From Chlorobiota bacterium (GTDB lineage: Bacteria > Bacteroidota > Ignavibacteria > Kapaibacteriales > NICIL-2): a stretch of 64,000 nucleotides of DNA. This document shows positions 4,987 through 39,912 of the stretch, in pieces; the stretch's first letter is position 1, and every line of letters starts with the position of its first letter. Made by a program: the position numbers and the translations under genes. The notes beneath the pieces are model-generated. The model was given only the letters and a program-made list of their open reading frames with translations. It had not been told where the DNA came from and searched no databases. The DNA lies in contig JAOAGY010000032.1 in the NCBI GenBank assembly GCA_026415505.1, positions 294,159-358,158 of the forward strand, given 5' to 3'.

Positions 4987-6173
4987 ACACCGAACGCCAG
5001 GAATGGTTCTACCGTTCTCACTACACCGACGAACGATACCATCGGCTGCGTCAATTGCTCGAGCAGCGGCTCGGTACACGCATCGAGTTTCGCATCATGG
5101 AAGCACCGGTGTTTCTCTCCGACGAGTTGCGCCGGTCAATCGCCGATGCAGCAATCGCTCTCGTCGAGCAGTGCACTGAGAAATCGTACCTTTCGCATGC
5201 AATCGAACGCGCTATTCCTCCGCGATATCGCATGCCGGATATTCCGCCACATCCGACGTGCGCCGTGGTGGATTTTGCGATTTCACAAGCCGATGGCGAG
5301 CTCGTGCCGCGTTTGATCGAGTTGCAAGGATTCCCCTCGCTCTTTGCGTATCAGCTATTTCTGACCGATGCGTATCACGACGCCTACGAGCTACGTGAGG
5401 AGTTTTCACCGTTTTTCGATCCGTCGCTCGATCGCAACGAATATCGCAGGATTTTGGAACGGTGGCTGATCGGGAACCATCACCCCGACAACACCGCACT
5501 GGTTGACTACAAACCGCTCGAGCAAAAAACCTATCCTGATTTCGCTGCCACAGAACTGCTCACTTGCATGGCACCGACCGACATTGGCGGCATCGTCGAA
5601 CGCGACGGATACCTTTTCCACGAACGCGGCGGAGCGTTGCAACCGCTCCGTCGGATTTACATGCGCGCAATAACCGACGAATTGGAAGAGCGCGGTGTCG
5701 AGGTGCCGTTTTCCTGGAACGATCCGCCGCACGTCGAGTGGGTCGTTCACCCGAATTGGTATTTCCTGATGAGCAAGTACTCGCTGCCGTACTTGCATCA
5801 TCCGACCGTGCCACGCGCGCTGTTTTGCGACACAATCGAACGTTTGCCCACCGATGTACGCTACGTGTTGAAGCCGCTTTTCGCATTCGCGGGAAAGGGT
5901 GTCAACGTCGAACCGACCGACGACGATTTGCGTGCACTCTCTCCCGACGAGCGCCGCAATTGGCTGGCGATGGAAAAGGTCGAGTACGCTCCTGCTTTGC
6001 CGACTCCCGAAGGGGCGAATTACGTCGAGGTACGGTGCATGGTGATTTGGGAAGAAGGAAGCCGCCCACGTCCGGCGATGTCGCTCGTGCGGACAGGTCG
6101 TTCGAAGCTGATGGGATCGCGCTATTTGACGCTACCGTGGACGGGCGCTTCGATTTGTTTTTTCGAGCAATAG
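4983..6173 (+). CDS. Hypothetical protein, possibly an ATP-grasp-like acid-amine ligase (circularly permuted or GspS/YgiC-like architecture). Low confidence on function.
   Basis: 396 aa. ATGA overlap with the upstream amidohydrolase. Near the C-terminus there is a K-loop-like segment (YVLKPLFAFAGKGVNVEP) reminiscent of the ATP-grasp B-domain. No other family signature recognised. Confidence 0.45.
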   Translation: MNTERQEWFYRSHYTDERYHRLRQLLEQRLGTRIEFRIMEAPVFLSDELRRSIADAAIALVEQCTEKSYLSHAIERAIPPRYRMPDIPPHPTCAVVDFAISQADGELVPRLIELQGFPSLFAYQLFLTDAYHDAYELREEFSPFFDPSLDRNEYRRILERWLIGNHHPDNTALVDYKPLEQKTYPDFAATELLTCMAPTDIGGIVERDGYLFHERGGALQPLRRIYMRAITDELEERGVEVPFSWNDPPHVEWVVHPNWYFLMSKYSLPYLHHPTVPRALFCDTIERLPTDVRYVLKPLFAFAGKGVNVEPTDDDLRALSPDERRNWLAMEKVEYAPALPTPEGANYVEVRCMVIWEEGSRPRPAMSLVRTGRSKLMGSRYLTLPWTGASICFFEQ

Positions 6174-6177
6174 CGGC

Positions 6178-8073
6178 TCACTCCAGGTAGGTGTAGCCGT
6201 ACAGCCCCGACCGATACATTGCCAGAAATTCCTTCCCTTCGTGGAGCGTGACCAAATTCTCTTTGACCGCTTGCATCACCCACGTCTCCATCGTGCGCAC
6301 AAGACGCTTGGCGGAGAACTGCACGTAGTCGAGCACGTCTTCGACCGTCTCGCCTTCGATGATTTGGTCGATCCAATAGCTGTCTTCGTCGCAGACGATG
6401 TGAACGGCGTTCGTATCGCCGAAGAGATTGTGCAAATCGCCGAGAATTTCTTGGTATGCGCCGACCAAGAACACACCGATGTAGTACGGCTCCCCTTCCC
6501 GCAAGTCGTGCACCGACAGATAAGGCATCGTTTCGCGAATGCCGATGAACCGATCGATGCGACCGTCGCTGTCGCAGGTGATGTCGTGAAGTGTCGCACG
6601 TCGCAACGGCTTTTCATTGAGCCGCTGCAGCGGCATGATCGGAAAGAGCTGATCGATAGCCCACGAATCGGGTAGCGACTGAAACAGCGAAAAGTTGCAG
6701 AAATACTTGTCGGCGAGCAGCTTCGGCAGCACGCGCAATTCATCGGGAATGTGCCGAAATTCTTGCGCGTAGCGATTGACCGTCGTCGCGATACTCCAGA
6801 ACAATCGCTCGACTTTCGCTCGCGATCGAAGGTCGAACAATCCGAGCGCAAACAGTTCGAGCGACTCCTCGCGAAGCTGGAGTGCATCGTGCCACACCTC
6901 CATGATCGTGCGCGGCGAAACGTTGTTGAGCAGTGTGTAGAGTTCGCGCACGATTTCGTGGTCGTTCGGCTCGATCGTGTGGAGTGTGTCGTCCCACAGC
7001 GGCGTCGTCGCCGTTTCCAGCACGTTGAACACCAACACCGAATGGTGTGCAGTCAATGCGCGTCCTGCTTCGGTGATGACGTGTGGATGCGGCAGTTGAT
7101 GCTTGTCGGCGGCATCGAGGAGCGTAGCAATCGCGTCGTTGGCGTATTCTTGAATCGAGTAGTTGATGCTGCTTGCCAGCGTCGTCCGCGAGCCGTCATA
7201 ATCCACGCCCAAGCCACCGCCGATGTCCACGTATTCGATGGCACAACCGAGCCGGTGCAATTGCACGTAGAATTGAGCGACCTCGCGCAGCCCCGCTTTG
7301 ATTTTGCGGATGTTGGTGATTTGCGAGCCGAGATGGAAGTGAATCAATTTCAGCCAGGAAAGAATTCCCTCCTGTCGCGCCAGCTCGACCGCTTCCAGCA
7401 GTTCGCTCGCATTGAGACCGAATTTGCTTTGATCGCCGCCGGATTCCTCCCACTTGCCGCTGCCGCTTGCCGCCAGTCGTATGCGAATACCGACGTTCGG
7501 CACGACATTGAGCCGCCGCGCAATGTGAACGATGAGCTTCAGTTCGTTGAGTTTTTCGACGACGAGGAAAATTTTTTTGCCCATTTTGTGTGCCAGCAGC
7601 GCCAGCTCGATGAAGTCTTCGTCCTTGTAGCCATTGCAGATGATGAGTGCTTCGGGATTGTCCATGATGGGCAAAACGGCATGCAACTCCGGCTTGGAGC
7701 CAGCTTCCAAGCCGATGTTGAACTTCTTGCCGTAGCGGACGATTTCCTCGACGACCGGACGCTGCTGGTTGACCTTGATCGGGTAAACGTTGTAGTACTT
7801 GCCGTTGTAGCCGTACTCGGCGCGCGCGCGTTCGAAGCAGCCACTGATTTTCTCGATGCGATGATCGAGGATGTTCGGAAAACGCAAAAGCACTGGCGGA
7901 TTGATGTCCTTGAGCGCCAGTTCGTCCATCAACTCGCGAATGTCTATTGCCGGTCCGTTGTCCTTTCGCGGACGAACGACGACGTTGCCCTTTTCGTTGA
8001 TGCCGAAATAGCCGATACCCCAGCCGGCGATGTTGTAAAGTTCAGCCGAATCCTCGACACGCCACGTTCTCAC
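6178..8073 (-). CDS. speA: Biosynthetic arginine decarboxylase
   Basis: 631 aa. N-terminus MRTWRVEDSAELYNIAGWGIGYF and PLP-fold core (NVYPIKVNQQRPVVEEI...) match SpeA. The length is typical. Confidence 0.9.
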   Translation of the reverse strand: MRTWRVEDSAELYNIAGWGIGYFGINEKGNVVVRPRKDNGPAIDIRELMDELALKDINPPVLLRFPNILDHRIEKISGCFERARAEYGYNGKYYNVYPIKVNQQRPVVEEIVRYGKKFNIGLEAGSKPELHAVLPIMDNPEALIICNGYKDEDFIELALLAHKMGKKIFLVVEKLNELKLIVHIARRLNVVPNVGIRIRLAASGSGKWEESGGDQSKFGLNASELLEAVELARQEGILSWLKLIHFHLGSQITNIRKIKAGLREVAQFYVQLHRLGCAIEYVDIGGGLGVDYDGSRTTLASSINYSIQEYANDAIATLLDAADKHQLPHPHVITEAGRALTAHHSVLVFNVLETATTPLWDDTLHTIEPNDHEIVRELYTLLNNVSPRTIMEVWHDALQLREESLELFALGLFDLRSRAKVERLFWSIATTVNRYAQEFRHIPDELRVLPKLLADKYFCNFSLFQSLPDSWAIDQLFPIMPLQRLNEKPLRRATLHDITCDSDGRIDRFIGIRETMPYLSVHDLREGEPYYIGVFLVGAYQEILGDLHNLFGDTNAVHIVCDEDSYWIDQIIEGETVEDVLDYVQFSAKRLVRTMETWVMQAVKENLVTLHEGKEFLAMYRSGLYGYTYLE

Positions 8074-8100
8074 GCCTTGCCCTACCTCCGACGAATGTGA

Positions 8101-9879
8101 TCAATGAACAACAATGAGCGGAAGCACCGTCGCCGACGAATCGCTTTCGATGCGCACGAAATAGGCGCCCGACGGCAACGCGCTGCATTCGATGGGAATC
8201 ACTCGTATCGAACCGGCGACAGTTCCATCGGCGTACAGTGCAAGCGCCTTTCCTGTCGCGTCGAGCAACGTTGCGCGGAGCCGAACCGGTGCGAGCGCTT
8301 CGACTTCGATGAACGCACGATCGCTCGCAGGATTCGGACCGATGCGCACTGGCTGTCGAGCAGTTTCACCGACGCTGGCGAGCACGTCCGACAAACGGAT
8401 GCGTACCGTCACCGGAAGATGGTCGCTGACAGTCGTGGTATAGCTCGACAAAAACGCATTCGGTGCTTCGAGGTACGTTCGATGAATCGCGCCGAAAAGC
8501 TCGTTCGAAACGATGATGTGATCGAGCATTCGCGCATTGACTGTCGAACCGATGTACGATCGCAGACCCAGCTCGCTCATCGGTTTGGTCAGAACGCGCC
8601 AATTGGCTGTATCCTCGATGAAGACCGCATAGGGCGTCGGATTTGGCGTTACGACCGACGAGGTCACATCGTCGTTGAAATCACCCAGCACGATGACCGG
8701 ATCGTTGGCGTAAAACGTGTTCAGGTAGTCGTGAAACGTTTCGGCATCCGTCTTGCGACGCTGCCAGTCGTCTTGCGCTGTCGTCGAATCGCCGGTCGCT
8801 TTTGCATGGATGTTGAAGAGCAGAATTTTTCGTTCGACGCCACCGACGGTGCATCGCGCCGTCATGCGAAACGGGAAACGCCCGCTCGCCCAGGCTTGCG
8901 AGCCGCCGTTGACGGCAAGCCCCGACTCGACGACCGCTGCTGTCGCATTGTTGACCAGGTACGCCATCTTCTGCTGTTGCTCGATCGGCGCGAGCAACCC
9001 GGTGTACGAACCTTGCACCGATCCGGCGAGACTATCGAGGACCGATGCAGTGACGACTTCTTGGAATGCGTAGATGTCCGACCGCATCGAATCGAGCGCC
9101 ATGCGAACGCTGTTGAACTGACGCTGCTTGTTCGATACACCGAGCGTCGTATCGGTCGAGCCGAACCACAGAAGATTCCACGTCGTCACATCGAGCGTCG
9201 CATCTTTCGGTACCGTGTCACGCTCGATGGTCGAAGCGACGTCCGTCGCAAAGCGCGGCAGGAGCTGATACGTCCCGCGAAACTGCGAGATGACACCGAC
9301 GACGTCGATCCGCCCGGTCGGGATCGGCAAACTGTTGCGCGCGATTTCCGTGTTCGCATCCACTCGCACCTGAAGCTGATCGCCAGCGGCACTGCGAACG
9401 TTGTAATTGCGATCGCCTTGGAATACGCCTGTTTCGACAAATTCGACGTTCCGCACACGAACGAGCATCCCTTCGAGCGCCTCGCCGATCGATGGAATCG
9501 AGCTTGTTCGCGGCGTCGGCTCGACGCGTGGAACAGGAATGACTTGAAAGGCGACCTGTCCGGTAATTTCGGCTAAACCTGTCCCGGATTGCCCGGTCGT
9601 TTGACCGAATTCCGTGAGAGTGCCGCCGAGAATTTCGACCGAATCGCCGATTTGCACACCCATTCTGAACGCACTGTTGAAGACGGCGATCCCGCCGGTG
9701 GCATCTTGGATGTAGCTGGTGTTGCGAAATTGATCGGCTACGGTAACCCGCCCGGCGATTCGCTCACCAGCGCGGATCGAATCACCGAAAGGACGTTGCT
9801 TGAATTGTGCAATGGTGATGTACGTCTGCGACCATGCCGTCGCTGCTACGAGAACGAGTGCGAATAGAAAGTGTTTCAT
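8101..9879 (-). CDS. Secreted endonuclease/exonuclease/phosphatase (EEP) family protein with an N-terminal beta-rich binding domain and a T9SS C-terminal sorting domain
   Basis: 592 aa. Signal peptide MKHFLFALVLVAATAWSQ. EEP core motifs (TWNLLWFG..., LGDFNDD, SDHLPV). C-terminal roughly 80 aa has a T9SS type-A sorting-domain pattern (...GAYFVRIESDSSATVLPLIVVH). Confidence 0.75.
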   Translation of the reverse strand: MKHFLFALVLVAATAWSQTYITIAQFKQRPFGDSIRAGERIAGRVTVADQFRNTSYIQDATGGIAVFNSAFRMGVQIGDSVEILGGTLTEFGQTTGQSGTGLAEITGQVAFQVIPVPRVEPTPRTSSIPSIGEALEGMLVRVRNVEFVETGVFQGDRNYNVRSAAGDQLQVRVDANTEIARNSLPIPTGRIDVVGVISQFRGTYQLLPRFATDVASTIERDTVPKDATLDVTTWNLLWFGSTDTTLGVSNKQRQFNSVRMALDSMRSDIYAFQEVVTASVLDSLAGSVQGSYTGLLAPIEQQQKMAYLVNNATAAVVESGLAVNGGSQAWASGRFPFRMTARCTVGGVERKILLFNIHAKATGDSTTAQDDWQRRKTDAETFHDYLNTFYANDPVIVLGDFNDDVTSSVVTPNPTPYAVFIEDTANWRVLTKPMSELGLRSYIGSTVNARMLDHIIVSNELFGAIHRTYLEAPNAFLSSYTTTVSDHLPVTVRIRLSDVLASVGETARQPVRIGPNPASDRAFIEVEALAPVRLRATLLDATGKALALYADGTVAGSIRVIPIECSALPSGAYFVRIESDSSATVLPLIVVH

Positions 9880-9901
9880 CGAAGGACGCCTTTTTTGTGA
9901 A

Positions 9902-10591
9902 TCATTGAACTTCTCGGAGAAACCAGCGCTGCTCTACGCTCGCGCCGATGCGGACATCGTGCACGAAAAGGTAGTAGCATTTACCGCGTTCCAAAACTAC
10001 GGTGCTATCGGTACCGATCGGTATGTTGCGATCGGCATCGAGCACGCGAAGACGAACGTTGCCGGCATCGAGTGGCACCAGCGGCAAGATCGTCTGCGCA
10101 TCCACGATGGGCAACGCCAGCGGTGCGTCGTTGGCTTCGACGGTGACGAACGTTTCTTCCGACGCATTGACGATCTTGATCGCGGCGCGGTCGGCAAAGG
10201 GACTTTGCGTCGTATCCACGATCGGTCGGAGAAAGTCGGTGATCGTTGCTCCACGAACGACGATCGTGTACGACTGCCCATCAGCCATGACGTACCGCTG
10301 CGAGGCAATACGGACAGGCGTTGTATCGGTTGTGCTGTAGGCTTCGAGAAGCACGTACGTGCCGGACGGCACCGAAATCGGTTCGCTGAATTGCCCCACA
10401 TCGAGCGACCGAACGACATCGGCACTATCGGCGACGATACGGAGCGGTCCGGTTTTCGTTTGTGCGTTGAACACTCGCACGTAGGCAGTTCCACCGGTGA
10501 AGGTGACGACGCCATCGGTGCAGCCGACAAGCACTGTGGCAACGACTGCGAGTGTCAGAAGGTAACGCGGAGTCCGACTTGCATGCGCCAT
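9902..10591 (-). CDS. DUF4397-like lipoprotein
   Basis: Start trimmed to the internal Met (MAHASRTPRYLLTLAVVATVLVGC, a lipobox-like LVGC) because the full ORF would run deep into the receptor gene. Repetitive beta-strand segments resemble DUF4397. Overlaps the 3' end of the upstream TonB-dependent receptor by about 37 nt. Confidence 0.55.
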   Translation of the reverse strand: MAHASRTPRYLLTLAVVATVLVGCTDGVVTFTGGTAYVRVFNAQTKTGPLRIVADSADVVRSLDVGQFSEPISVPSGTYVLLEAYSTTDTTPVRIASQRYVMADGQSYTIVVRGATITDFLRPIVDTTQSPFADRAAIKIVNASEETFVTVEANDAPLALPIVDAQTILPLVPLDAGNVRLRVLDADRNIPIGTDSTVVLERGKCYYLFVHDVRIGASVEQRWFLREVQ

Positions 10592-13500
10592 CGTGAAAAG
10601 AACGAATCGGTGTCGTAGATACCAGGCTTGCCGTTCGAATTCGTCGGCGACGAATACGAAATACGCAAACGCCCTTGCGCATCGAATGGTGTATTCGTCG
10701 TCGGATCGTTGACGAGTGTGATGAGGCGATAGCTTTGGAAGTTGACGTACTGTTGCAGCCCCCACGAGCTGTTGAGCAAATTGAGCACGTTCTGCACATC
10801 GACCGTCAGCTCCAGCCGCGTTCCACCGAGCGAGGGGAGTTGCTGCACGAATCGAACGTCGAGTTGATGAATCCACGGCTCGCGCATCGAATTGCGTGGG
10901 AGCACCTGCCCGCGGTACCGCCGCAGGACGCTATTGGCTTCGATGAAATCCATCAGTTGTTTCCAAATCTGATCGGCTGTTCGCAAATCGACACCGCCCG
11001 GCGGGACGACCACAATTCGCGTTCCGTAATCTTCCGGTCGGGGGACGTAGATGAGGTCGTTGTACGTCAGCAGATCGCCGTTGTAGTCGCCGATGTATGT
11101 GAAGCTGTAGGGTCTGCCTGAATTGCCAGTGTAAAAGATTCCAAGTGTCGTTGTGAGATTTTCGATGAGTCGCGTGCGGTAGAACAGGCTGATCGTGATT
11201 CGATGCGGCACGTCGAAGTTCGAGCGACCGAGTGTCGCACGGTTCGGATCGGTTGCGTCGGTGTTTTGCCAATTCGAGAGCGCTGTCGCTGCGGTCGCAT
11301 CCGCCAAGTCGTAGGTTGCCGAATAGACATACGACACTGTCCCGCTCAAACCGCGCAGGATGGGATTGTTTTCCTGAAGCGATAGCGAAAGCATGCCGCT
11401 GTACTGATAGCCTTCGTTACGACTGGCTAAGAGGATGACTTGCGTGAATTCGGGTGCGGCGTTCGAGTCGGTCCGTCCCGCCGGCGAACGCGCATACATG
11501 GGACGACCATCGAGCGGCGAAAACGGCATCGCCAGCGAGCGTCGCAAGTTGATATTGCGGAATTCAACCGTGTTGAGCATTTGCCCGTACATCAGCTCGC
11601 TCGTCAGGCGGAGCCACGGCTGTAGCTGCACGTCCACACCGAGCGTCGAACGCCACACTTGCGGAAAGCGGAAGTTCGGATCGGTCACATTGATTTGGGT
11701 CGTCGCGATCGGCTGACCGGGGAAACCTGGATCGCCCGGCTTCGGCGGATTGAAGGGATCGAGCGTCACTCGAAGCGGCACATTCGGCGAGTCCAGTCGC
11801 ATCAGCAGTGGCGCATTGGCATCGTTGTCGCGACCGATGCTGACGCGATAGAGGTCGACGCCTGTGTTGCTGTACTGGTTCGAAAGCCACACAGCCGGCA
11901 CCCGACCGCTGAAGATGCCCGTACCGCCGCGAATCTGAATCGTGCGATCGCCGGTAACGTCGTAGTTGAAGCCGACGCGTGGTGCCCACAGCGGACGCGC
12001 ATCGGGCAAGCGGCTTGTCCGCAAACCTGCGGGGATTTCCTGGTAGTAGCGCTTGAGCGTGTCGGGCAATGCTGCATAGACGCGCGCCAGCGAATCGAAC
12101 CGTGCCGCAAACGCGGGGTTGTCGTAGGGACGGTCGAAGTAAACCGGCACATCCGCACGCAGTCCGAACGTCACGCGCAATTGCGAGGTAACGTTCCATT
12201 CATCCATCGCGTAGATGCCGCCTTGCATCATTCCCCACCGAGCCCGCGGCTGCCGATCGCCGCCCGTTGCGCTCAGATTGGCGTAGCTGACCTGGTAAAA
12301 ACTCGGTGTTCGGTCGCGCAGTGCTTGGACGTCGCGAAATGTGTAGCTGCCGAAAAAGTCGGGGATGAAAAGGTTGTTGAAGCGATACAACTCGTTGTGC
12401 GTACCGATCGTGACGGTGTGGTCGCCGAGAAAAATCGAAAAGTCGTTGGTGATTGCCAGTTGCGATTGATCGAGCGCGTTGGCTTGGGAATTCCGCTCGG
12501 GACCAAAGACGACCTGGTCTGCTCCGAGCATGACTTTGACTTGCGGAAACGGATCGGCACGCAAGACGCGCTCGTCGTTGGTTTGCGTCCACGCAATGCG
12601 GAATTCGTTCGACATGTTCTCGCCCCAAATCGAATTCCATTGCAGCACCGTCGAATTATTGATGCTGCGGAATTCGTTCCACTGACTCGACAGCGAGAAC
12701 ACCTGCCGTGTGCGCAGCACGTTCCGATCCTGGAAAGCGTTGGTGTAGTTGTGGCGGAGTTGCAGCTTGTGGCGATCGGAGATGTTCCAATCGAAGCGAG
12801 CGATGATGTTGAACGTGTTGTTGCGCGAGACGAACAAATCGGCGGTGCCTGGATCGTAGCCGTACACCTCGCGGACCGTGCGAACGATGTCGTCGAGTTC
12901 GGCTTTGCTGTGCGGGAAATTGTTGAGCGCAGCAGGATTGTTCAGCGCGATTTCGAGCGGACGATTGCGGAGCCGCGTTTCGGTCGTTACGTGGAAAAAC
13001 AACCGATCCCGGACGATGGGACCACCAAGGCGCGCTCCGAACTGCGCATCGCTGAACTGGGCGTATGGCTGCCGGAGCGCATCCGGACTCGGTCCGACCA
13101 GGAGCTGATTCCGACCGAAGACGAACGCCGATCCTCTGAACGTATTCGTTCCACCGCGCGTGACGGCATTGATCAGTCCGCCGGTGAAACCGCTTTGGCG
13201 TATGTCGTAGGGCGAGATGTTCACCTGCAGTTCTTCGATCGCATCGAGCGAGAGAAGATTCGCATTGGCTTGGCTGCCCGCGGTTCCTGCTTGACCGAGA
13301 CCGAAAATGTCGTTGGCGATCGCCCCGTCGATCTGAATGTTGTTGTAGCGAGAATTCGAGCCGAGTATGCTGATGCCTTGCAAGCCGTCGTCGGCACCGA
13401 ACGCGGTTGTTTGTGTCGCATACGGATTGACCCGTGCGATGTCCGACAGTGAGCGATTGATTGCGGGCAGTGACGCGATCTCGTCGGACGACACCGTTCC

Positions 13501-13956
13501 TCCGCTTCCCATTTTCGTCGGCGAAAACGTCCGGTCGCGTTGACCGGTCACGACGACGTCCTGCTTGCGCATCTCCACCGACGACAGTGCAAAACTGACA
13601 CGCGACTCTTGACCCAATTCGACGTACACGTCGGTGACCGTATCCGGCACGAACCCGACATACGACGCCCGCACGCGATACGGACCGCCGACACGCACAC
13701 CACGAATCGAGAATCGTCCGTTCTTTTGCGACGTCGTGCCGTACCGAGTACCGGTCGGAAGATGTTCGGCGACGACGGTTGCACCATAGAGCGGCTCGCC
13801 CGTGCGGCGGTCGGTCACCGTTCCTCCGATCGAGCCGGTCGTGACGCCTTGGCTATAGGCATCGATCGAAGCGAGAACCAGCACAATCGCGCTGGAAACG
13901 AGCAGAGAACGTAGCGTTGTCGTCAACCTTTCCTTTCGCGCAAGACTGTTCAGCAC
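10555..13956 (-). CDS. TonB-dependent receptor with an N-terminal carboxypeptidase-regulatory-like domain and a plug domain
   Basis: N-terminal CarbopepD_reg-like region (GGTVTDRRTGEPLYGATVV...RVGGPYRVRASYVGF), then a TonB plug (VVVTGQRDRTF...SDEIASLP), then a long beta-barrel ending in the terminal ...RVTF. The start is uncertain: GTG at 13956 is chosen for signal-peptide spacing, with a TTG at 13926 and an ATG at 14022 as alternatives. The ORF's maximal extent to 14217 is unlikely. Confidence 0.85.
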   Translation of the reverse strand: MLNSLARKERLTTTLRSLLVSSAIVLVLASIDAYSQGVTTGSIGGTVTDRRTGEPLYGATVVAEHLPTGTRYGTTSQKNGRFSIRGVRVGGPYRVRASYVGFVPDTVTDVYVELGQESRVSFALSSVEMRKQDVVVTGQRDRTFSPTKMGSGGTVSSDEIASLPAINRSLSDIARVNPYATQTTAFGADDGLQGISILGSNSRYNNIQIDGAIANDIFGLGQAGTAGSQANANLLSLDAIEELQVNISPYDIRQSGFTGGLINAVTRGGTNTFRGSAFVFGRNQLLVGPSPDALRQPYAQFSDAQFGARLGGPIVRDRLFFHVTTETRLRNRPLEIALNNPAALNNFPHSKAELDDIVRTVREVYGYDPGTADLFVSRNNTFNIIARFDWNISDRHKLQLRHNYTNAFQDRNVLRTRQVFSLSSQWNEFRSINNSTVLQWNSIWGENMSNEFRIAWTQTNDERVLRADPFPQVKVMLGADQVVFGPERNSQANALDQSQLAITNDFSIFLGDHTVTIGTHNELYRFNNLFIPDFFGSYTFRDVQALRDRTPSFYQVSYANLSATGGDRQPRARWGMMQGGIYAMDEWNVTSQLRVTFGLRADVPVYFDRPYDNPAFAARFDSLARVYAALPDTLKRYYQEIPAGLRTSRLPDARPLWAPRVGFNYDVTGDRTIQIRGGTGIFSGRVPAVWLSNQYSNTGVDLYRVSIGRDNDANAPLLMRLDSPNVPLRVTLDPFNPPKPGDPGFPGQPIATTQINVTDPNFRFPQVWRSTLGVDVQLQPWLRLTSELMYGQMLNTVEFRNINLRRSLAMPFSPLDGRPMYARSPAGRTDSNAAPEFTQVILLASRNEGYQYSGMLSLSLQENNPILRGLSGTVSYVYSATYDLADATAATALSNWQNTDATDPNRATLGRSNFDVPHRITISLFYRTRLIENLTTTLGIFYTGNSGRPYSFTYIGDYNGDLLTYNDLIYVPRPEDYGTRIVVVPPGGVDLRTADQIWKQLMDFIEANSVLRRYRGQVLPRNSMREPWIHQLDVRFVQQLPSLGGTRLELTVDVQNVLNLLNSSWGLQQYVNFQSYRLITLVNDPTTNTPFDAQGRLRISYSSPTNSNGKPGIYDTDSFFSRWRMQVGLRVTF

Positions 13957-14101
13957 TGCAAAGTTAGCGATGGCAAAACATCCGAGATCGTAACGAATAG
14001 GAAAACAGCGCCGATGACACATTTTGACCTCGGTCCGAAATACCTTGCAACCTGCTGCGCGGCTGTTCGTAAATGCAGCCGGACACCATCGGCATCGAAC
14101 G

Positions 14102-14488
14102 ATGATCGTCACCGACCAGCGACCGACACCTCGGCAATATATCGCCCTGTGCCGGCGAAGTGGCTTGCATCGTCCCACCGACGAGGCACGCATCGCCCGA
14201 ATGATCGCCGAAGCCAATCTTGTGCGAACCGTGTGGAACGGCGATACACTCGTCGCGTTGCTTCGCGCGTGGACCGATTGGGTGTACGTCTGTTACCTTG
14301 CCGACATCATGGTGGCAGCCGAGTACCAGCGCAGTGGAATCGGACGATTGCTCGTCGCCGATCTTCGCGCTCGGCTCGGCGATCGCGTTCAGCTTGTCGC
14401 CGTTGCAGCTCCGACTGCCAGCGGCTTTTACGAAAGCATCGGCTTCGAAAAATCCGATCGGACGTACATTCTTCGCAGGAAACAATGA
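14102..14488 (+). CDS. GNAT family N-acetyltransferase
   Basis: 128 aa from the internal Met. Acetyl-CoA binding motif QRSGIGRLLV. Divergent from the receptor gene. Confidence 0.7.
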   Translation: MIVTDQRPTPRQYIALCRRSGLHRPTDEARIARMIAEANLVRTVWNGDTLVALLRAWTDWVYVCYLADIMVAAEYQRSGIGRLLVADLRARLGDRVQLVAVAAPTASGFYESIGFEKSDRTYILRRKQ

Positions 14489-14670
14489 TGCGCTTCCGAA
14501 CGACTCTCGGTGTCGCACTCGTGTTCATCGGTATTGGATTGCTCGGTTATCTCTGCGTCGCGCTGCTGCCGTTCGAGCATCCCGTGCGAATCACCGTTCA
14601 AGCACTCGCGAGCGCAGCGATTGGCATCGCAGGAATGCTCCTTTGGGCGGCATGGCGGAAGATGCGGTAG
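14485..14670 (+). CDS. Small membrane protein (61 aa, two predicted TM helices), hypothetical
   Basis: ATGA overlap with the GNAT stop. Translation MMRFRTTLGVALVFIGIGLLGYLCVALLPFEHPVRITVQALASAAIGIAGMLLWAAWRKMR is strongly hydrophobic. Sits between the GNAT and YitT genes. Confidence 0.4.
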   Translation: MMRFRTTLGVALVFIGIGLLGYLCVALLPFEHPVRITVQALASAAIGIAGMLLWAAWRKMR

Positions 14671-14718
14671 CGCTGATTGCTGTACCTTTGCGGGATAGCG
14701 ACCTCGGTGCTGTGTCGA

Positions 14719-15588
14719 ATGAAACGCTCGCGAACTGCTACCATCGTGTACGAAAGCGTGTTGCTCGCAGCCGGCGTCACTTCGGCGACGATCGGGCTGC
14801 GCGGATTTTTGTTGCCCGTCGGATTCATCGATGGCGGCGTGACGGGAACATCGCTTTTGCTGACAGAATTGACCGACACTCCCCTGTCGGTGTGGATCGT
14901 CGCCATCAACGCTCCTTTCATCGCTTTGGCATACCGCAATCAAGGCGCGCAGTTCGCACTGCGAACGCTCGTTGCGATCGTGCTGCTGGCGGTCACGGTA
15001 GCAGTCTTGCCGCTGGAGGTCGTCACGCGCGACAAATTTCTCGGCGCGATCTTCGGTGGTATTTTCTTGGGTGCTGGCATCGGGCTTGCGATTCGCGGTG
15101 GCGCTGTGCTCGATGGCACCGAAATTCTGGCGATCCTGGTCAGTCGCCACACGATCCTGAGCATCGGGGACGTGATTTTGATTTTCAACATCGTGCTGTT
15201 CAGCGTCGCAGCGTTCGTGTTGTCGGTCGAAGTGGCGCTCTACGCGATCATCACCTACGCCGTTGCATCGAAGACTGTGGACTTCATCGTGGACGGCATC
15301 GAAGAGTACATCGCCGTCATCATCGTCTCCGAGCGGAGCGATGAGATTCGTCGTGCAATCATCAGCAAACTCGGCAGCGGCTGTACGATTTTCGACGGCA
15401 AACGCGGATTTGCGCTCGAACAAGGCGATCTCCGCAACGCCGCTATACTTTTCAGCGTCATCACGCGACTGGAAGTGACGCGCTTTTTGGGCGTCGTCCG
15501 TGGGATCGATCCCGATGCGTTCGTCGTGATGATGACCGCAAAAGACCTCCGCGGCGGTTGGGTCAAAAAGCGCCCGCTCAAGCATTGA
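14719..15588 (+). CDS. YitT family membrane protein (DUF161/DUF2179)
   Basis: Multi-TM N-terminal domain followed by a C-terminal DUF2179-like domain (…ISKLGSGCTIFDGKRGF…VVMMTAKDL). Start set at Met15 (MKRSRTATIV). Confidence 0.75.
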   Translation: MKRSRTATIVYESVLLAAGVTSATIGLRGFLLPVGFIDGGVTGTSLLLTELTDTPLSVWIVAINAPFIALAYRNQGAQFALRTLVAIVLLAVTVAVLPLEVVTRDKFLGAIFGGIFLGAGIGLAIRGGAVLDGTEILAILVSRHTILSIGDVILIFNIVLFSVAAFVLSVEVALYAIITYAVASKTVDFIVDGIEEYIAVIIVSERSDEIRRAIISKLGSGCTIFDGKRGFALEQGDLRNAAILFSVITRLEVTRFLGVVRGIDPDAFVVMMTAKDLRGGWVKKRPLKH

Positions 15589-15658
15589 TCGCACCTCTGC
15601 CTCCATCGTGCCGCGGTATCTTCGCGGGAAGTTTCACTCCGCTCTCGACAATACTGTC

Positions 15659-16807
15659 ATGCCGATGGGTTTTGCAACGAAGGCGATTCACGTTGGACAA
15701 GAGCCCGATCCTCTCACCGGTAGCGTGACCGTACCGCTCTATCAAACCTCGACGTTCGCGCAAGAAGCGATCGGCAAACACAAAGGCTACGAATACGCGC
15801 GCACCCAAAATCCGACGCGCTCAGCGTGGGAACGCAACATGGCTGCACTCGAAGACGGCACCGATGCGATCTCGTTCGCCAGTGGCATGGCTGCCATCGA
15901 TGCGATCGCGCGATTGTTCGATGCCGGCGATCACGTTCTGCTCGCCGAAGACATGTACGGCGGCACTTTCCGCTTGTTCGACACCGTGCTTTCCCGGCAT
16001 GGGCTTCGCTTCGACACCGTGGACATGCGCGATCTCGACGCTGTCCGACGCGCGCTCCGACTCGATACGAAGCTTCTGCTGACCGAGACACCGACCAACC
16101 CGCTGATGACGATCAGCGACATCGCAGCACTGGCTGAAATCGCTCACTCGTCGGGTGCTCTGCTGGCTGTGGACAATACGTTCGCCTCGCCGTACTTTCA
16201 GCGACCGCTTCAACTCGGCGCCGACATCGTCGTGCACTCGGCGACGAAATACTTGGGCGGTCATTCGGATTTGGTGCACGGTGTGGTCGTCGTGCGATCC
16301 GAAGAGCTTGCCGAGCGCTTGCATTTCATTCAAAACGCCGTCGGTGCCGTGCCGGGTCCGTTCGATTGTTGGCTGCTACTGCGATCGGTCAAAACGCTCG
16401 CTCTGCGCATGGAACAACATCAGCGCAATGCACTGGCGATCGCTCAGTTGTGCAGCAGCCATCCTGCCGTCGAGCGCGTGTACTATCCGGGGTTGCCCTC
16501 GCATCCGCAGCACGAGCTCGCTGCACGCCAGATGAGCGGATTTTCCGGTATGGTCTCGATCGAACTCGGCTCGCGACAAAAAGCCGACCGCTTCATCGCT
16601 GGACTGCGCATCGTCACACTCGCCGAATCGCTCGGTGGCGTCGAGTCGCTCGTCTGTCACCCGGCGACGATGACACACGCCAGCATCCCGGAAGAGGTAC
16701 GACTGGCGCGTGGCATCACCGATGGTCTGGTACGGCTGAGCATCGGCATCGAAGATTCCGCAGACCTTGTCGAGGACGTTCGCGATGCACTCGACAACTG
16801 CCGATAA
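15659..16807 (+). CDS. Cys/Met-metabolism PLP-dependent enzyme (cystathionine gamma-synthase / gamma-lyase family)
   Basis: PLP-lysine motif HSATKYLGGHSD. Conserved N-terminus ...ATKAIHVGQEPDPLTGSVTVPLYQTSTF. Length about 382 aa. Confidence 0.85.
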   Translation: MPMGFATKAIHVGQEPDPLTGSVTVPLYQTSTFAQEAIGKHKGYEYARTQNPTRSAWERNMAALEDGTDAISFASGMAAIDAIARLFDAGDHVLLAEDMYGGTFRLFDTVLSRHGLRFDTVDMRDLDAVRRALRLDTKLLLTETPTNPLMTISDIAALAEIAHSSGALLAVDNTFASPYFQRPLQLGADIVVHSATKYLGGHSDLVHGVVVVRSEELAERLHFIQNAVGAVPGPFDCWLLLRSVKTLALRMEQHQRNALAIAQLCSSHPAVERVYYPGLPSHPQHELAARQMSGFSGMVSIELGSRQKADRFIAGLRIVTLAESLGGVESLVCHPATMTHASIPEEVRLARGITDGLVRLSIGIEDSADLVEDVRDALDNCR

Positions 16808-23663: not shown

Positions 23664-24412
23664 CGGTCGTTCAGCATTCGAACACGGACTTGCCACTGCG
23701 CAAAATACTGCATCCACAGCGAGCGGCAAATCGTCGCGTCGGCAACGAGCAACAGTGCACCGATCGAACCGGCGAGCACGATACCGCTCCGTAGCGCAAC
23801 GACCGTGAAAAACGCGATCACACTGACCCCGACTGCATGCGACATGCGATGGACGCTGCTGCTGGTGCGAAGCGGCAACATCGCTACGAAGCTGACCAGG
23901 AACCACCCGACGAAATTCACCAGCGGAACGCCGTAGTAGAACCCCGCTTGATCCCACACCCACAACGTCATCGGTCCGATCGCCACGGGGTCAACGAGCA
24001 GGTCGTAGAGCATCATTGCCAGCGCTCCGATTGCGCGTGCAATCCAACGACGCTCGGTCAGCAGCGTTGCCCACGTCCAAGCATACGCCAAGAGAACGAG
24101 CCACGCTGCGACCATCACCAGCGGTACACCAGCGATCGCCAGTCCGAGTGTGTCGGTGTAGTGGTAGTGTCCGAACGGCACACCAGTCGCCACGCCGATG
24201 ATCTCGCTTGCAAAGCCGATAAGAGCACCGACGAGCAGCCGCAGAAACTGAGGATGCCGATGCACGACGATCACGCCTGCTGCAATCCACAGAAACAGCA
24301 TTTCGCCGTACCGGCGCAGTACTCCGACATCGCTTTCTGCAGCGCTTGTAAGCGCTCCGCCGACCAGGAGAACAACGAACAACCCGACCAGCAGCCTACG
24401 CACTCCGTTCAT
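23660..24412 (-). CDS. cruF: Carotenoid biosynthesis membrane protein (DUF422 / CruF-like carotenoid 1',2'-hydratase family)
   Basis: About 250 aa polytopic membrane protein inside the carotenoid operon. Sequence resembles the Caroten_synth/DUF422 family, which includes CruF. Start set at the internal Met (MNGVRRLLVGLFVVLL). Confidence 0.6.
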   Translation of the reverse strand: MNGVRRLLVGLFVVLLVGGALTSAAESDVGVLRRYGEMLFLWIAAGVIVVHRHPQFLRLLVGALIGFASEIIGVATGVPFGHYHYTDTLGLAIAGVPLVMVAAWLVLLAYAWTWATLLTERRWIARAIGALAMMLYDLLVDPVAIGPMTLWVWDQAGFYYGVPLVNFVGWFLVSFVAMLPLRTSSSVHRMSHAVGVSVIAFFTVVALRSGIVLAGSIGALLLVADATICRSLWMQYFAQWQVRVRMLNDR

Positions 24413-25871
24413 ACCGCTCGATGAGCTCGTACACCAACTTCGACGAAAGCACCACCATCGGCGTACCGCCACCGGGATGCGTACTGCCACCGACGTAGTA
24501 CAACCCCCGCACACAACGATCGCGCATCGGCGGTCGAAGGAATGCCGTGCGATACGAATGCGACGCCCATCCGTAGATCGAGCCACCCGGCATTGCGTAA
24601 TCGCGCTCGAATCGTTCCGGCGTCCATACCGAGCGCACGACGATATCGCTTTCGGCGATCGCGATACCGCGCCGTTCCAACACGCCAGCGATGCGCTCCC
24701 AGATCATCGGGATTGCATCCTCCCAACGCCGCGATTCGACAGCAGGAGCATTCGCCATCACGAAAAGCGTTTCTCCCCCTGGCGGTGCGACTGTGGGATC
24801 GGTTTTGCTGGTGACGTTGAGATAGACGGTCGGTTCGGTGGGAAATTCCGCCCGCTCGAACAACTGCTCGAACTCCCGCCGATAGTCGCTCGAAAAGGCG
24901 ATCGTGTGATGAAAAACGTCCGGCGGCAGCCGACGGCGTAAGCCGAGCAAAAACACCACGCCCGACATCGAGCGCTGGTAGAATCGCCGCCGCCGTGGCA
25001 GATCGAGCAGCGCATCGGCAGTCGTCGCATCGCCGTTGAACACCACCACATCGGCATCGAACATGTCTCCGCCAGAGAGCCGCACTCCACGGACGCGCCC
25101 GCTGCTGTGCACAATCTTTTCGACCGTTGCATTCGTCAGGATGCGCACTCCTCGCTCGCGCAAAGCACCGACGATCGTTTCGACGATGCCGTACAAACCG
25201 CCCTCGACGTACCATCCGCCGTGGGCGAACTCCAAGTACGGAATCACCAGCAACGTCGCGGGCGAACGATACGGCGATGACCCCACGTAGGTCGGATAGC
25301 GCTCGAAAATCTGCCGCAAATACGGACTCGAAAGATGACGCTCGACGGTCGCGGCATAATTGCCCCACGCATTCCGCAACGGCAGCCAATGCAACGATCG
25401 AACAAGCGAGAAAATCTGGTTCGGCTCGGGCAGTTCGGTCGGCACCGACTGGAAAAACGTTCGCGTCGAAAGTTCGAAAAGGTCGGCTGCAGTAGCCATC
25501 AGCTTCCAGTAGCCCTTTCCGCCGTCGGCTTCGTAGCGTTCGAGCATCGCCGCGATCGACGGGAGCGGACCCGGATATTCGATGCGTTCGCCGTCGGCGA
25601 AGCGGTACTGTGTCAGTGGCTGGAGCCTGCGAAAAACCAAATGCTGCCGAGAAACGCCGCAACGATCGAGCAAATCGGTAAAAACATGCGGCAGCGTGAT
25701 AAGCGACGGTCCCGTATCGAAGCGAAATCCGTCGGCAGCAAAAAGGTTCATCTTTCCGCCCGGCGAGCTGCTGCGCTCCAGTAGCGTCACGTTCCAGTCG
25801 TCGCTGGCTGCCCGCAAGGCGAGCGACAATCCTCCGAGACCGGCACCGACGACGATCATGCGCTTTTTCAT
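24396..25871 (-). CDS. CrtI-family carotenoid desaturase (CrtD-like, possibly a 3',4'-desaturase)
   Basis: FAD-binding N-terminus MKKRMIVVGAGLGGLSLA and GPSLI motif. About 491 aa. It is the second CrtI paralog in the operon. Confidence 0.8.
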   Translation of the reverse strand: MKKRMIVVGAGLGGLSLALRAASDDWNVTLLERSSSPGGKMNLFAADGFRFDTGPSLITLPHVFTDLLDRCGVSRQHLVFRRLQPLTQYRFADGERIEYPGPLPSIAAMLERYEADGGKGYWKLMATAADLFELSTRTFFQSVPTELPEPNQIFSLVRSLHWLPLRNAWGNYAATVERHLSSPYLRQIFERYPTYVGSSPYRSPATLLVIPYLEFAHGGWYVEGGLYGIVETIVGALRERGVRILTNATVEKIVHSSGRVRGVRLSGGDMFDADVVVFNGDATTADALLDLPRRRRFYQRSMSGVVFLLGLRRRLPPDVFHHTIAFSSDYRREFEQLFERAEFPTEPTVYLNVTSKTDPTVAPPGGETLFVMANAPAVESRRWEDAIPMIWERIAGVLERRGIAIAESDIVVRSVWTPERFERDYAMPGGSIYGWASHSYRTAFLRPPMRDRCVRGLYYVGGSTHPGGGTPMVVLSSKLVYELIERYERSA

Positions 25872-26986
25872 CGTAGCACCTTTCGAGGCAATTCCACACG
25901 ATAGCGACGTTGTTTCCACTCGACACCGCTCCCAAAGCGCCAGCGCCACAGCGATGCCAAACCGACGCCGATCAAAAACAGCTCTGCCACTGGATGCAGC
26001 AACACCGACCACGCTGCGTGTCGAAATCGAAGCGCCAAAACGAGACGTGCAACTCCGACTGCACCGGCTGCGATCGCAACGGGAACGGTCGGCGAAACCA
26101 GCAGCTTCACCAGCGGCATCGTAAAGACGACCGCATGCAATCCGAGGACGATCGGAAAGAGCCACTTTCGACGGAAGCCGGGATAGAAATTTTTTTGGAA
26201 ACCGCGCCAGATTTCCCCGATCGAACGATACATCCGCACGCGGGCGATGCTACTGCCGTCGCAGCAGAGCGCTCGCTCGCCGCTGGACCGCCATTGCCGC
26301 GCCAATGCAGTATCCTCGAAAAGCTCGCGGCGAACACAAGCATGCCCTCCGATGCGGAAGTACGTCTGACGATCGCACAGCAAGCACGAGCCGTGCGCCA
26401 GAGCGTATCGTGGGTGTTGCCAGTAGAGCTGCATCGGCGATGGGTAGAGCGTCATCACGTAAAAGTTCAGCATCGGCATCAAGACACGTTCGGCAAGCGA
26501 GCGCATCTCGATGGCAGGCCACGCCGAAAGCAGCGTCGCGCCGTGCTTCTGCGCCGTTGCGATCAACTGCTCGATCGCATTGGGTTGCAATCGTGTGTCG
26601 GCGTCGAGAAAGAGCATCCACCGATGCTGCGCGGCACAAGCCAGGCGGTAACACGCATGCGGTTTGCCGTACCAGCCGTCGGGCAGCGGCACAGTCTCGA
26701 GCACTCGCACTCGCCGATCGCGCTGTGCCCAGACTGTCGCGATCTGTCGGGTTCCGTCGCTCGATTGATCGTCGTAAACGAGAACCTCGGCGACGATACT
26801 GCCCTGCGCGACGACGCTGGCGATGCAGCCGCCGAGAACCTGCTCTTCGTTTCGTGCCGGTATCAAGACACTGACTCCGTCTTGGCTGCCACGTGCGGCT
26901 GCAACCGGACGCAGAAACGTCAATGCGTTGACGGTCGCAATACAGCAAAACGACAGTGCAAGCACAGCGATCGCCCACTCGATCAT
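25868..26986 (-). CDS. Family 2 glycosyltransferase (carotenoid glycosyltransferase CruC/CrtQ-like by context)
   Basis: GT-A fold motifs (VSVLIPARNEE..., YDDQSSDGT, LFLDADT). C-terminal TM helices. Located between carotenoid desaturases. Confidence 0.7.
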   Translation of the reverse strand: MIEWAIAVLALSFCCIATVNALTFLRPVAAARGSQDGVSVLIPARNEEQVLGGCIASVVAQGSIVAEVLVYDDQSSDGTRQIATVWAQRDRRVRVLETVPLPDGWYGKPHACYRLACAAQHRWMLFLDADTRLQPNAIEQLIATAQKHGATLLSAWPAIEMRSLAERVLMPMLNFYVMTLYPSPMQLYWQHPRYALAHGSCLLCDRQTYFRIGGHACVRRELFEDTALARQWRSSGERALCCDGSSIARVRMYRSIGEIWRGFQKNFYPGFRRKWLFPIVLGLHAVVFTMPLVKLLVSPTVPVAIAAGAVGVARLVLALRFRHAAWSVLLHPVAELFLIGVGLASLWRWRFGSGVEWKQRRYRVELPRKVLR

Positions 26987-27717
26987 GCTGCATCGAACAC
27001 GATCGGTGCGACTTTTTCCGGTGCTTCGTCGAGCAACAGGTGTCCAGCACCTGCGATGCAGAACACATCAGCGCGCTGTAGCGTGCGTTGCCACGTCGGT
27101 ATCGAACGCCGCACGGCTCGGAACGTCCGCTCGCCGTACACCAACGCCACCGGAACGTTCACGTTGCGGTATCGTTCGGGTCCGGGCAATCGTGCCAGTG
27201 CTTTGAGATATGCGCGCGTGGACTGTGCGCTTTTATCGGCGAACGACGCCATCAGGTCGGATCGCTCGGTTCGACGCATGCGAAGAGCAGCGTTGACGAT
27301 CCGCCGCCCCAACGACGAATCGAACGTCAGGCGATAGGCAATGGAACCGATCGGTTCGCTCGTAAAAAAGCGGAAATACCACGGCATGTAGGCGAAGAGA
27401 TCGAGTGCAACGATACGCACAATGTGCTGCGGCACGAGCAACGCCACTTCGAGCGCCAGAACTGCACCGCTGCACGAGCCGACGATGACGACATCGCTCG
27501 CCAACGTCTCGACGATTGTCGCAAGCGATTCTGCCACACATTCGATGCTGAATCGTTCGATCATCGGCGAGGAACCGTAGCCCGGCAAATCGGGCGCAAG
27601 CAAGCGCCACGTGTTCGGTACGAACGGACGTAGCGGTGCGAACGTTCGATGGTCGCCGCCCCAGCCGTGCAGCCCGAAAGCGATCTGCGACCCGCTACCG
27701 TACTCGACGACGTGCAT
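26983..27717 (-). CDS. Alpha/beta-hydrolase-fold protein with a G-S-C-S-G nucleophile box (Cys at the nucleophile position). Candidate acyltransferase or esterase of the carotenoid operon.
   Basis: 245 aa from the internal Met MHVVEYGSGSQIAFGLHGWGG. Nucleophile-elbow sequence IVGSCSGAVLA. C-terminal GAGHLLLDEAP (probable catalytic His). The ORF-track N-terminal extension overlaps crtI and is rejected. Confidence 0.65.
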   Translation of the reverse strand: MHVVEYGSGSQIAFGLHGWGGDHRTFAPLRPFVPNTWRLLAPDLPGYGSSPMIERFSIECVAESLATIVETLASDVVIVGSCSGAVLALEVALLVPQHIVRIVALDLFAYMPWYFRFFTSEPIGSIAYRLTFDSSLGRRIVNAALRMRRTERSDLMASFADKSAQSTRAYLKALARLPGPERYRNVNVPVALVYGERTFRAVRRSIPTWQRTLQRADVFCIAGAGHLLLDEAPEKVAPIVFDAA

Positions 27718-39908: not shown

Positions 39909-39912
39909 AGTC

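Follow-up and report, generated by a model that had tools for sequence, protein, structure and literature searches.

What does a bacterium do with a TonB-dependent transporter, a lipoprotein of the DUF4397 family and a secreted enzyme of the EEP (endonuclease/exonuclease/phosphatase) fold that are encoded one directly after the other? This question is raised by a three-gene locus on the minus strand (8101 to ~13930) of a 64-kb stretch of DNA with ~58% G+C, contig JAOAGY010000032.1 of a Chlorobiota bacterium (assembly GCA_026415505.1), to which we refer as the window. Proteins encoded in it are identical or almost identical to those of a 'Chlorobi bacterium' or Kapabacteria metagenome-assembled genome. 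A first-pass annotation had compared the locus to polymer-utilization loci and proposed DNA, RNA or phosphoesters as its substrate. Our analysis supports this proposal with an intact set of EEP catalytic residues, a co-conserved operon and the presence of a DUF5689 domain in the enzyme. With somewhat better than even confidence, we read the locus as a three-gene operon for the degradation of extracellular DNA (eDNA), possibly also RNA, and the uptake of the products.

According to the list of open reading frames (ORFs) and their Pfam matches, the locus comprises the transporter gene (10555..13926, minus strand; 1123 aa from a TTG at 13926, alternative start GTG at 13956), the DUF4397 lipoprotein gene (9902..10591, minus strand; 229 aa, with the codon of the lipobox residue Cys24 at 10520-10522) and the gene of the secreted nuclease (8101..9879, minus strand; 592 aa), whose product combines a signal peptidase I (SPI) signal, a tandem-OB DUF5689 domain, an EEP domain and a sorting domain of the type IX secretion system (T9SS). 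All three genes seen in the first pass are thus real and run in the same direction. They had also been called overlapping, which applies to the transporter and DUF4397 genes, as the ATG of the latter sits inside the 3' end of the former (37-nt overlap), but not to the DUF4397 and EEP genes, which are separated by 22 nt.

We then asked how firmly these genes belong together. Using the alignment of EEP homologues, we fetched 66 genome loci and scanned them with our own hidden Markov models for the transporter and DUF4397; linkage was counted in 50 species representatives of Kapabacteria/Ignavibacteria with DNA available upstream of the nuclease orthologue. DUF4397 lies directly upstream of the nuclease on the same strand in 49 of the 50 genomes, and the transporter is also present in 48 of these 49 loci, the contig of the last one ending too early. 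The only genome without either gene (locus L028, from the same genome as L003) displays a clean absence, with no remnants of transporter or DUF4397 genes found in L003. The transporter and DUF4397 genes are typically −37 to +12 nt apart, the DUF4397 and nuclease genes 14–33 nt. The surroundings of the triad are of at least two unrelated kinds, either with speA downstream or with SpoIIE upstream and an RsmE-like methyltransferase downstream. Upstream of the transporter gene we found a Bacteroidota-type −7 promoter box, TAACTTTG (TAnnTTTG; 13959..13966, minus strand), which we consider a putative promoter because it follows the known Bacteroidota consensus. An exact TAnnTTTG precedes the transporter at a constant distance in 35 of 41 loci, compared to 0.023 expected per 131-nt window. 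Within our 64-kb window, the motif is no more frequent than expected by chance (9 found vs 8.6 expected), so that its conservation across loci alone counts. Linkage in 49 of 50 genomes, together with a promoter box in 35 of 41 loci against this expectation, is far beyond chance: the triad is a conserved operon by its arrangement, which speaks against the second refuting outcome named in the first pass, genes that are independently transcribed and not co-conserved.

Several further candidates for regulatory elements were considered. A scan for sigma-70 promoters and terminators yielded chance-level output and is unsuited to this phylum, for which reason we relied on TAnnTTTG. A further copy of this motif, TAGTTTTG (9999-9992, minus strand), falls within the DUF4397 gene near its 3' end, ~110 nt ahead of the start of the nuclease gene. 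Either an internal promoter or a coincidence of the coding sequence would explain it; since it is conserved in the closest clade only and coincides with Val-Val-Leu codons, we did not accept it as a nuclease promoter. Four loci (L013-L016) carry an inverted repeat, TGTGCA(N4-5)GCACA (e.g., GTGCATGGGACGCACA), ~5–25 nt downstream of the TAnnTTTG box and before the transporter. This repeat overlaps the likely transcription start and looks operator-like; it is absent upstream of the window's own transporter. An Rfam scan of 5500-16000 yielded no RNA elements. Loci of Hymenobacter and Balneolaceae (L061-L071), recovered by their EEP pattern, were dropped, as they encode large unrelated multidomain T9SS EEP proteins and no triad. 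In some metagenome-assembled genomes, the transporter ORF is split (L005, L025 and L042) or the DUF4397 ORF is disturbed (L011 and L042); such broken or fused frames could be assembly-error frameshifts or incipient pseudogenes.

The enzyme at the end of the operon looks like an active nuclease, judging by its residues. Its EEP catalytic domain (8419..9183, minus strand) matches PF03372 (Exo_endo_phos) with 33.8 bits (cut-off 24.5; 3.8e-8). The first-pass annotation had named a degenerate active site as one outcome that would speak against its proposal; in an alignment of 31 homologues (46–83% identity), all eight catalytic residues (N235, E274, H358, D400, N402, D453, D486 and H487) are invariant. 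We take these to be the canonical EEP positions on the basis of the motifs WN, QE, GDFND and SDH and of our knowledge of DNase I and APE1. The protein is also equipped for export. A signal peptide is predicted for residues 1–17 (9829..9879, minus strand; MKHFLFALVLVAATAWS|Q) with a putative cleavage site that would leave Gln18 as the first mature residue (AWS|QT, window position 9828), and this glutamine is invariant in 31 sequences. The predicted mature N-terminus of the transporter is likewise Gln (AYS|QG, window position 13851). Exported proteins of Bacteroidota follow a 'Q-rule' that leads to pyroglutamate N-termini, and both predicted glutamines fit this rule. At the C-terminus, a T9SS type A sorting domain (8113..8340, minus strand) reaches 25.4 bits with TIGR04183 (cut-off 23) and 25.5 bits with PF18962 (cut-off 27), the latter being carried by many of the nuclease homologues; the T9SS tail assigned in the first pass therefore stands on the TIGR04183 score. 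Sequence searches of the PDB with the three locus proteins and with the EEP-family profile gave no useful match, and structure prediction was needed for this reason.

What the enzyme acts on is suggested by the region ahead of its catalytic domain. The extra N-terminal beta-rich binding domain described in the first pass proved to be DUF5689 (9238..9822, minus strand), matched by Pfam over the full domain length (1e-14). Its structural model (pLDDT 92) displays two OB folds in a HIN-like arrangement and resembles HIN and RPA OB folds, some of which were solved with bound DNA; we thus predict a nucleic-acid-binding module. According to Sharan et al. (PMC12478041), DdbD, a DUF5689 protein of Bacteroides discussed below, likewise resembles p202 (4JBM). 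The identity of this domain lends stronger support to a nucleic-acid substrate than was available to the first pass.

DUF5689 is widespread, with 1616 DUF5689-like proteins among 1.84 billion representatives (phmmer). Many of them are large and secreted, with two to six copies of the domain or with lamin-tail (LTD), EEP or T9SS domains, and the short ones we recovered are not lipoproteins. The DUF5689+EEP unit is collinear with the C-terminal part of a Chondrinema LTD-DUF5689-EEP-T9SS protein (30% identity over 522 aa, E 7e-61), which itself shows weak matches to the ExeM/NucH and MnuA nucleases. Because of this collinearity, the two-domain OB+EEP unit is not a recent fusion. In another protein, encoded next to a distant nuclease homologue, DUF5689 is fused to a phospholipase D (PLD)-type domain. 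Both the domain combinations and the model suggest that DUF5689 serves as a nucleic-acid-binding module of secreted nucleases.

The combination of OB folds and an EEP domain is known from the nucleases ExeM (Shewanella), Xds (Vibrio cholerae) and NucH, which contain two OB folds followed by an EEP domain, are cell-envelope-associated or extracellular, and have roles in eDNA use and biofilms (PMC6085458). ExeM needs both parts, the two-OB-fold region and the EEP domain, to act as a DNase (PMC6085458). The window enzyme differs from ExeM/NucH in having neither a lamin-tail domain nor a GlyGly-CTERM anchor, and carries the T9SS domain instead. The ExeM/NucH model NF033681 matches it with 33 bits only (cut-off 300), covering model positions 30–135 in the OB region. 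We therefore describe the window enzyme, from its domain composition, as a putative minimal ExeM/Xds-like nuclease adapted to T9SS. To our knowledge, ExeM and Xds have not been described with a dedicated transporter.

This kinship also opens a different explanation, in which the nuclease serves no nutritional purpose and instead restructures eDNA in the matrix of biofilms or mats, or allows escape from DNA traps, while the transporter and DUF4397 import an unrelated nutrient and merely share the promoter. ExeM and Xds influence biofilm formation (PMC6085458), a ddbF homologue has been tied to bile-dependent biofilm formation (PMC12478041), and the nuclease is found alone in many genomes. The fixed gene order and translational coupling across ~50 species with different flanks are nevertheless hard to explain without functional coupling, and we consider this explanation rather improbable.

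The closest functional parallel to degradation coupled with uptake is the ddbABCDEF locus of B. thetaiotaomicron, an experimentally validated DNA-utilization locus (Sharan et al., PNAS 2025, PMC12478041). Both systems stem from one phylum, broadly defined, and combine a non-SusC TonB-dependent transporter, a DUF5689 (HIN/OB-like) domain and secreted nucleases in a locus that resembles a polysaccharide utilization locus (PUL); the proposed logic, extracellular cutting of DNA followed by import of the products, is common to both. In the ddb locus, DUF5689 defines a separate protein encoded beside the transporter, DdbD, the proposed DNA-binding lid of the transporter (PMC12478041), which we assume, on the Bacteroides lid model, to be a lipoprotein. 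Six genes make up the ddb locus, whose three nucleases are of other types, whereas the three-gene window locus has DUF5689 fused to a T9SS-exported EEP nuclease and places DUF4397 beside the transporter. By its predicted proteins, the window locus thus has the secreted nuclease but no stand-alone DUF5689 protein next to the transporter, and we liken it to Ddb/PUL-type DNA utilization by its probable workings rather than as a demonstrated member. The locus is organized like classical SusC/SusD PULs, in that a single operon encodes an outer-membrane transporter, a neighboring lipoprotein and a hydrolase that is secreted or surface-bound; it differs by the absence of a SusD homologue, by its OMP_b-brl_4 + CarboxypepD_reg transporter and by a predicted substrate that is nucleic acid and not glycan.

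The same domain families occur in DNA uptake for natural transformation, which has to be weighed as a function of the window locus. In Riemerella, RA0C_RS04915, a CarboxypepD_reg (PF13620) barrel, is encoded adjacent to the DUF5689 protein RA0C_RS04920, and both are essential for transformation (PMC8459023); the ddb locus has been stated to be evolutionarily related to this system (PMC12478041). By analogy, the window's DUF5689 domain would capture double-stranded DNA on the cell surface, the barrel would pass long DNA to the periplasm for ComEC, and the EEP domain would trim or nick it. The likeness lies in a PF13620 outer-membrane barrel combined with DUF5689. The Riemerella DUF5689 protein, however, carries DUF5017, is not fused to a nuclease and has no DUF4397 partner, whereas the DUF5689 protein of the window includes an intact hydrolytic nuclease, by which transforming DNA would be destroyed, and is the cargo of T9SS instead of a transporter-adjacent lipoprotein. 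Furthermore, ComEC, DprA, ComF and ComEA were not found among the window ORFs scanned. We therefore regard a transformation apparatus as unlikely, and DNA degradation with product uptake as the better description of the locus.

We next turned to the transporter itself. Its architecture, CarboxypepD_reg (2e-21) plus OMP_b-brl_4 (2.7e-61) in Pfam, is not of the SusC type. The CarboxypepD_reg N-terminal extension (13582..13833, minus strand; PF13620, 76.6 bits, residues 42–125 counted from GTG 13956) is followed by the strand DVVVTG (13543..13560, minus strand), situated between the N-terminal domain and the plug. A hydrophobic motif of the type (V/I)(V/I)V(T/V)(A/G) occupies this position across 17 aligned orthologues, and by its resemblance to the known consensus we consider it a putative TonB box. 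The plug domain (13207..13497, minus strand), a strongly conserved region, stays below the Pfam cut-off on the single sequence (Plug, 19.2 bits vs 23.9); a profile of the 17 orthologues (A4) matches plug domains of solved TonB-dependent transporters that serve as siderophore and colicin receptors, namely 5fr8 (residues 22–174, E 1.4e-7) as well as Cir, PirA and PfeA (E range 1.4e-7 to 3e-4 including 5fr8). The beta-barrel (10771..12825, minus strand; PF25183, 208.5 bits) ends in the motif ...SRWRMQ(L/V)G.R..F, with Phe as the final residue in 17 of 17 sequences. Genes for TonB or ExbBD were not seen within the 64-kb window. The receptor of CarboxypepD_reg, plug and barrel proposed in the first pass is thus correct in its domains but probably not in its length of 1134 aa. 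TTG 13926 is the likelier start: GTG 13956 lies only 3 nt past the promoter box TAACTTTG (13966-13959), and the TTG is common to close relatives (L007, L009, L010 and L012).

This architecture also allows the reverse direction of transport to be considered, with the transporter moving DUF4397 or the nuclease outward as an exporter. CarboxypepD_reg + OMP_b-brl_4 is an Oar-like architecture, and Myxococcus Oar is reportedly required for the secretion of PopC. At the window locus, the nuclease has its own T9SS sorting signal and the DUF4397 lipoprotein its own targeting route, and nothing in our analysis points to export, so we consider an exporter highly improbable.

The neighbors of transporter and nuclease homologues in other genomes bear on the substrate. 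The EEP superfamily also holds phosphatases, sphingomyelinases and lipid phosphodiesterases, so the enzyme might be a phosphatase or phosphodiesterase acting on non-nucleic esters, such as phospholipid head groups or inositol phosphates, with the transporter importing the phosphorylated product or a phosphate-bearing compound. In a plasmid collection, five of six inspected loci with transporter homologues (26–33% identity) contain other phosphodiester-cleaving enzymes nearby, which amounts to four independent contexts, not five, because two Bacteroides loci are orthologous. In these two, from Bacteroides finegoldii (L074:7884-12264) and B. ovatus (L075:7890-12280), the Bacteroides proteins closest to the transporter (33% and 30% identity, respectively) are encoded between ettA and a convergent EEP-family gene of 365–382 aa that belongs to a different subfamily. 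A transporter paralogue in Parabacteroides precedes an ENPP phosphodiesterase gene, a homologue in Spirosoma adjoins a phospholipase C gene, and one in Pseudoalteromonas follows an S1/P1 nuclease gene near ushA. This phosphodiesterase company is suggestive but anecdotal, and the phospholipase C and ENPP genes fit general organophosphate scavenging, as does a phytase-like gene near one distant nuclease homologue. The EEP, ENPP, S1/P1 nuclease and ushA neighbors are equally in line with a role in nucleic-acid use.

The neighborhoods of the nuclease family point to nucleic acids. We examined six distant members (31–35% identity to the window enzyme), none of which has DUF4397 beside it. One of them lies in a nuclease island (L083; GCA_943371965.1, CALRWV020000001.1, 1-17842) with a T9SS-sorted Endonuclease_1 protein (Endonuclease I), the DUF5689-EEP-T9SS homologue, speA, a 1075-aa DUF5689-PLDc_2-T9SS protein and a 500-aa ORF without Pfam match, so that DUF5689 is joined, within a single locus, to two distinct catalytic domains of nuclease type; a convergent CarboxypepD_reg/OMP_b-brl_4 transporter nearby is 37% identical to that of the window. 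In another locus (L085:3465-9782), the nuclease homologue is divergent from a gene for a 1424-aa T9SS protein with choice-of-anchor I and 5'-nucleotidase C-terminal domains, a pairing that suggests extracellular processing of DNA to nucleosides. The association of the family with 5'-nucleotidase, Endonuclease I and PLD-nuclease genes, the invariant fusion of a tandem OB/HIN-like domain ahead of the catalytic domain and the homology to the ExeM/NucH-like OB+EEP module all argue against general organophosphate scavenging, to which we assign a low probability. A nucleic-acid substrate is favored over generic phosphoesters, although not proven.

These neighborhoods also indicate how the operon came about. 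The nuclease appears as a widespread stand-alone extracellular enzyme in the company of nucleic-acid catabolic genes, and the transporter and DUF4397 as a two-gene add-on limited to one large clade: the pair is a clade-specific addition because distant nucleases stand alone or beside other secreted nucleic-acid enzymes. Two separate lineages of the Ignavibacteria type possess the nuclease without the pair, one represented by L003/L028 (JACPPD010000003.1) and the other by L080 (Logan SRR27760790_9558), where the SpoIIE/RsmE synteny is kept around a lone nuclease. Neither lineage shows remnants of the transporter or DUF4397 genes, so the two have come or gone together, as one block.

The lipoprotein encoded by the second gene was confirmed as DUF4397 by PF14344 (68.1 bits, cut-off 30.6; 1.3e-18), which all 20 homologues match, and by a lipobox LVGC whose Cys24 is invariant in 20 sequences. 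The predicted fold consists of two beta-sandwiches and resembles the PepT2 ectodomain and AlgF, with the HGSNAT luminal domain also among the likenesses of the model; four DUF4397 homologues show weak AlgF matches in Pfam. No SusD_RagB match was found at the locus in the Pfam scan, and the lipoprotein partner is DUF4397 instead. A tblastn search of the plasmid collection with DUF4397 yielded no match. We know of no described function for this family, and its literature, judged by title and abstract, has no bearing on the present context. Small DUF-family lipoproteins serve as lids of non-SusC transporters in Bacteroides (DUF4249, DUF4625, DUF4876, DUF4374, BtuG and HmuY in the text of Price et al., bioRxiv 10.1101/2023.03.17.533168); the concept of a small lipoprotein encoded beside such a transporter is the same here, and DUF4397 is not among the families named in that text. 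From its lipoprotein nature, translational coupling and co-conservation, we infer that DUF4397 might be a partner of the transporter.

A number of observations weigh against a DNA-utilization operon. The EEP fold is not exclusive to nucleases, as phosphatases and lipid phosphodiesterases share it. The nuclease family is often found at loci that lack the transporter and DUF4397 (L003/L028, L080 and all six distant homologues), so the enzyme does not need them. The closest Bacteroides homologue of the transporter (33% identity, plasmid collection) lies outside any ddb-like locus, and transporter neighborhoods are heterogeneous, that of Persicobacter being unrelated. DUF4397 is mildly acidic, and neither it nor the OB domain is basic overall (isoelectric point, pI, ~5–6); charge and pI were dropped as indicators of DNA binding because they proved uninformative. 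Finally, the Bacteroides lipoprotein export motif C(x/xx)(D/E)(D/E) (PMC12478041) was not found in the DUF4397 sequences (n = 20), which display a conserved C-x-(D/E)-G-V-V-T-F with a single acidic residue after the lipidated Cys. Surface exposure of DUF4397 is therefore no more than possible; the consensus stems from Bacteroides and Capnocytophaga, such that the signal of Kapabacteria may differ.

If the operon nevertheless serves DNA degradation and uptake, its parts would act as follows. A single Bacteroidota-type promoter upstream of the transporter gene would drive all three genes. The SPI signal would take the 592-aa enzyme across the inner membrane, and the T9SS would export it via its C-terminal sorting domain, leaving it attached to the surface or released. 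There, the tandem-OB (HIN-like) DUF5689 domain would hold nucleic acid while the metal-dependent EEP domain cleaves the phosphodiester backbone, and the TonB-energized transporter would bring the oligonucleotides or nucleotides so released through the outer membrane. DUF4397, translationally coupled to the transporter and possibly in contact with it, would be an accessory subunit that might serve as a lid, capture substrate or dock the nuclease. The physiological purpose would presumably be scavenging of phosphorus, nitrogen or carbon.

More tentatively, DUF4397 might represent an unrecognized family of TonB-dependent-transporter partners that forms, together with the barrel, a dedicated import gate for oligonucleotides or DNA, the two genes having been acquired together, as a module placed immediately ahead of a widespread T9SS OB-EEP nuclease. 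The locus would then be the smallest self-contained DNA-utilization locus known and possibly the outer-membrane entry route for DNA in Kapabacteria/Ignavibacteria, for feeding or transformation. We offer this extended proposal as a possibility, with clearly less confidence than the operon's role in degradation and uptake.

Sediments, mats and sludge hold much phosphorus, nitrogen and carbon in the form of extracellular DNA, and how DNA or its products pass the outer membrane of Gram-negative bacteria outside Pseudomonadota is only now emerging, with the Riemerella barrel in 2021 and DdbCD in 2025. The window locus suggests that uncultured Kapabacteria/Ignavibacteria use the same principle in a three-gene form of OB/HIN-like DUF5689, nuclease and non-SusC transporter. 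The concept itself was described for gut Bacteroidales in 2025; new are the compact architecture, the conservation over ~50 environmental species and the candidate role of DUF4397. DUF4397 thereby gains a concrete, testable candidate role, and the conserved triad offers a simple metagenome marker for DNA-scavenging capacity.

The genes flanking the triad are housekeeping genes. Upstream lie ORFs without Pfam match and a Cys/Met PLP enzyme. Downstream, outside the conserved unit, speA (arginine decarboxylase by Pfam; 6178..8073, minus strand) starts 27 nt past the nuclease stop, with no terminator predicted between the two, and may be co-transcribed with the triad at the window locus. It occupies this place in all loci of the Kapabacteria type (L001, L006-L017 and L045) and not in those of the Ignavibacteria type; it recurs in the nuclease island L083.

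Elsewhere in the window, a 552-aa protein (35912-37570, plus strand) shows lamin-tail-domain matches in two stretches and a FlgD_ig-like C-terminal domain, with no catalytic domain detected; the lamin-tail domain is also found in nucleases of the ExeM/Xds type. The following stretch (37572-40503), with genes for a BNR/sortilin-like protein and for a 196-aa product without Pfam match, has a G+C content of 0.51 compared to ~0.58–0.61 in its flanks and a low third-position G+C (0.45–0.52), and may be horizontally acquired DNA. A carotenoid-type cluster (24396-30222, minus strand) comprises a phytoene/squalene synthase gene (29170-30222) and amine-oxidase/desaturase-like genes (27695-29401 and 24396-26165).

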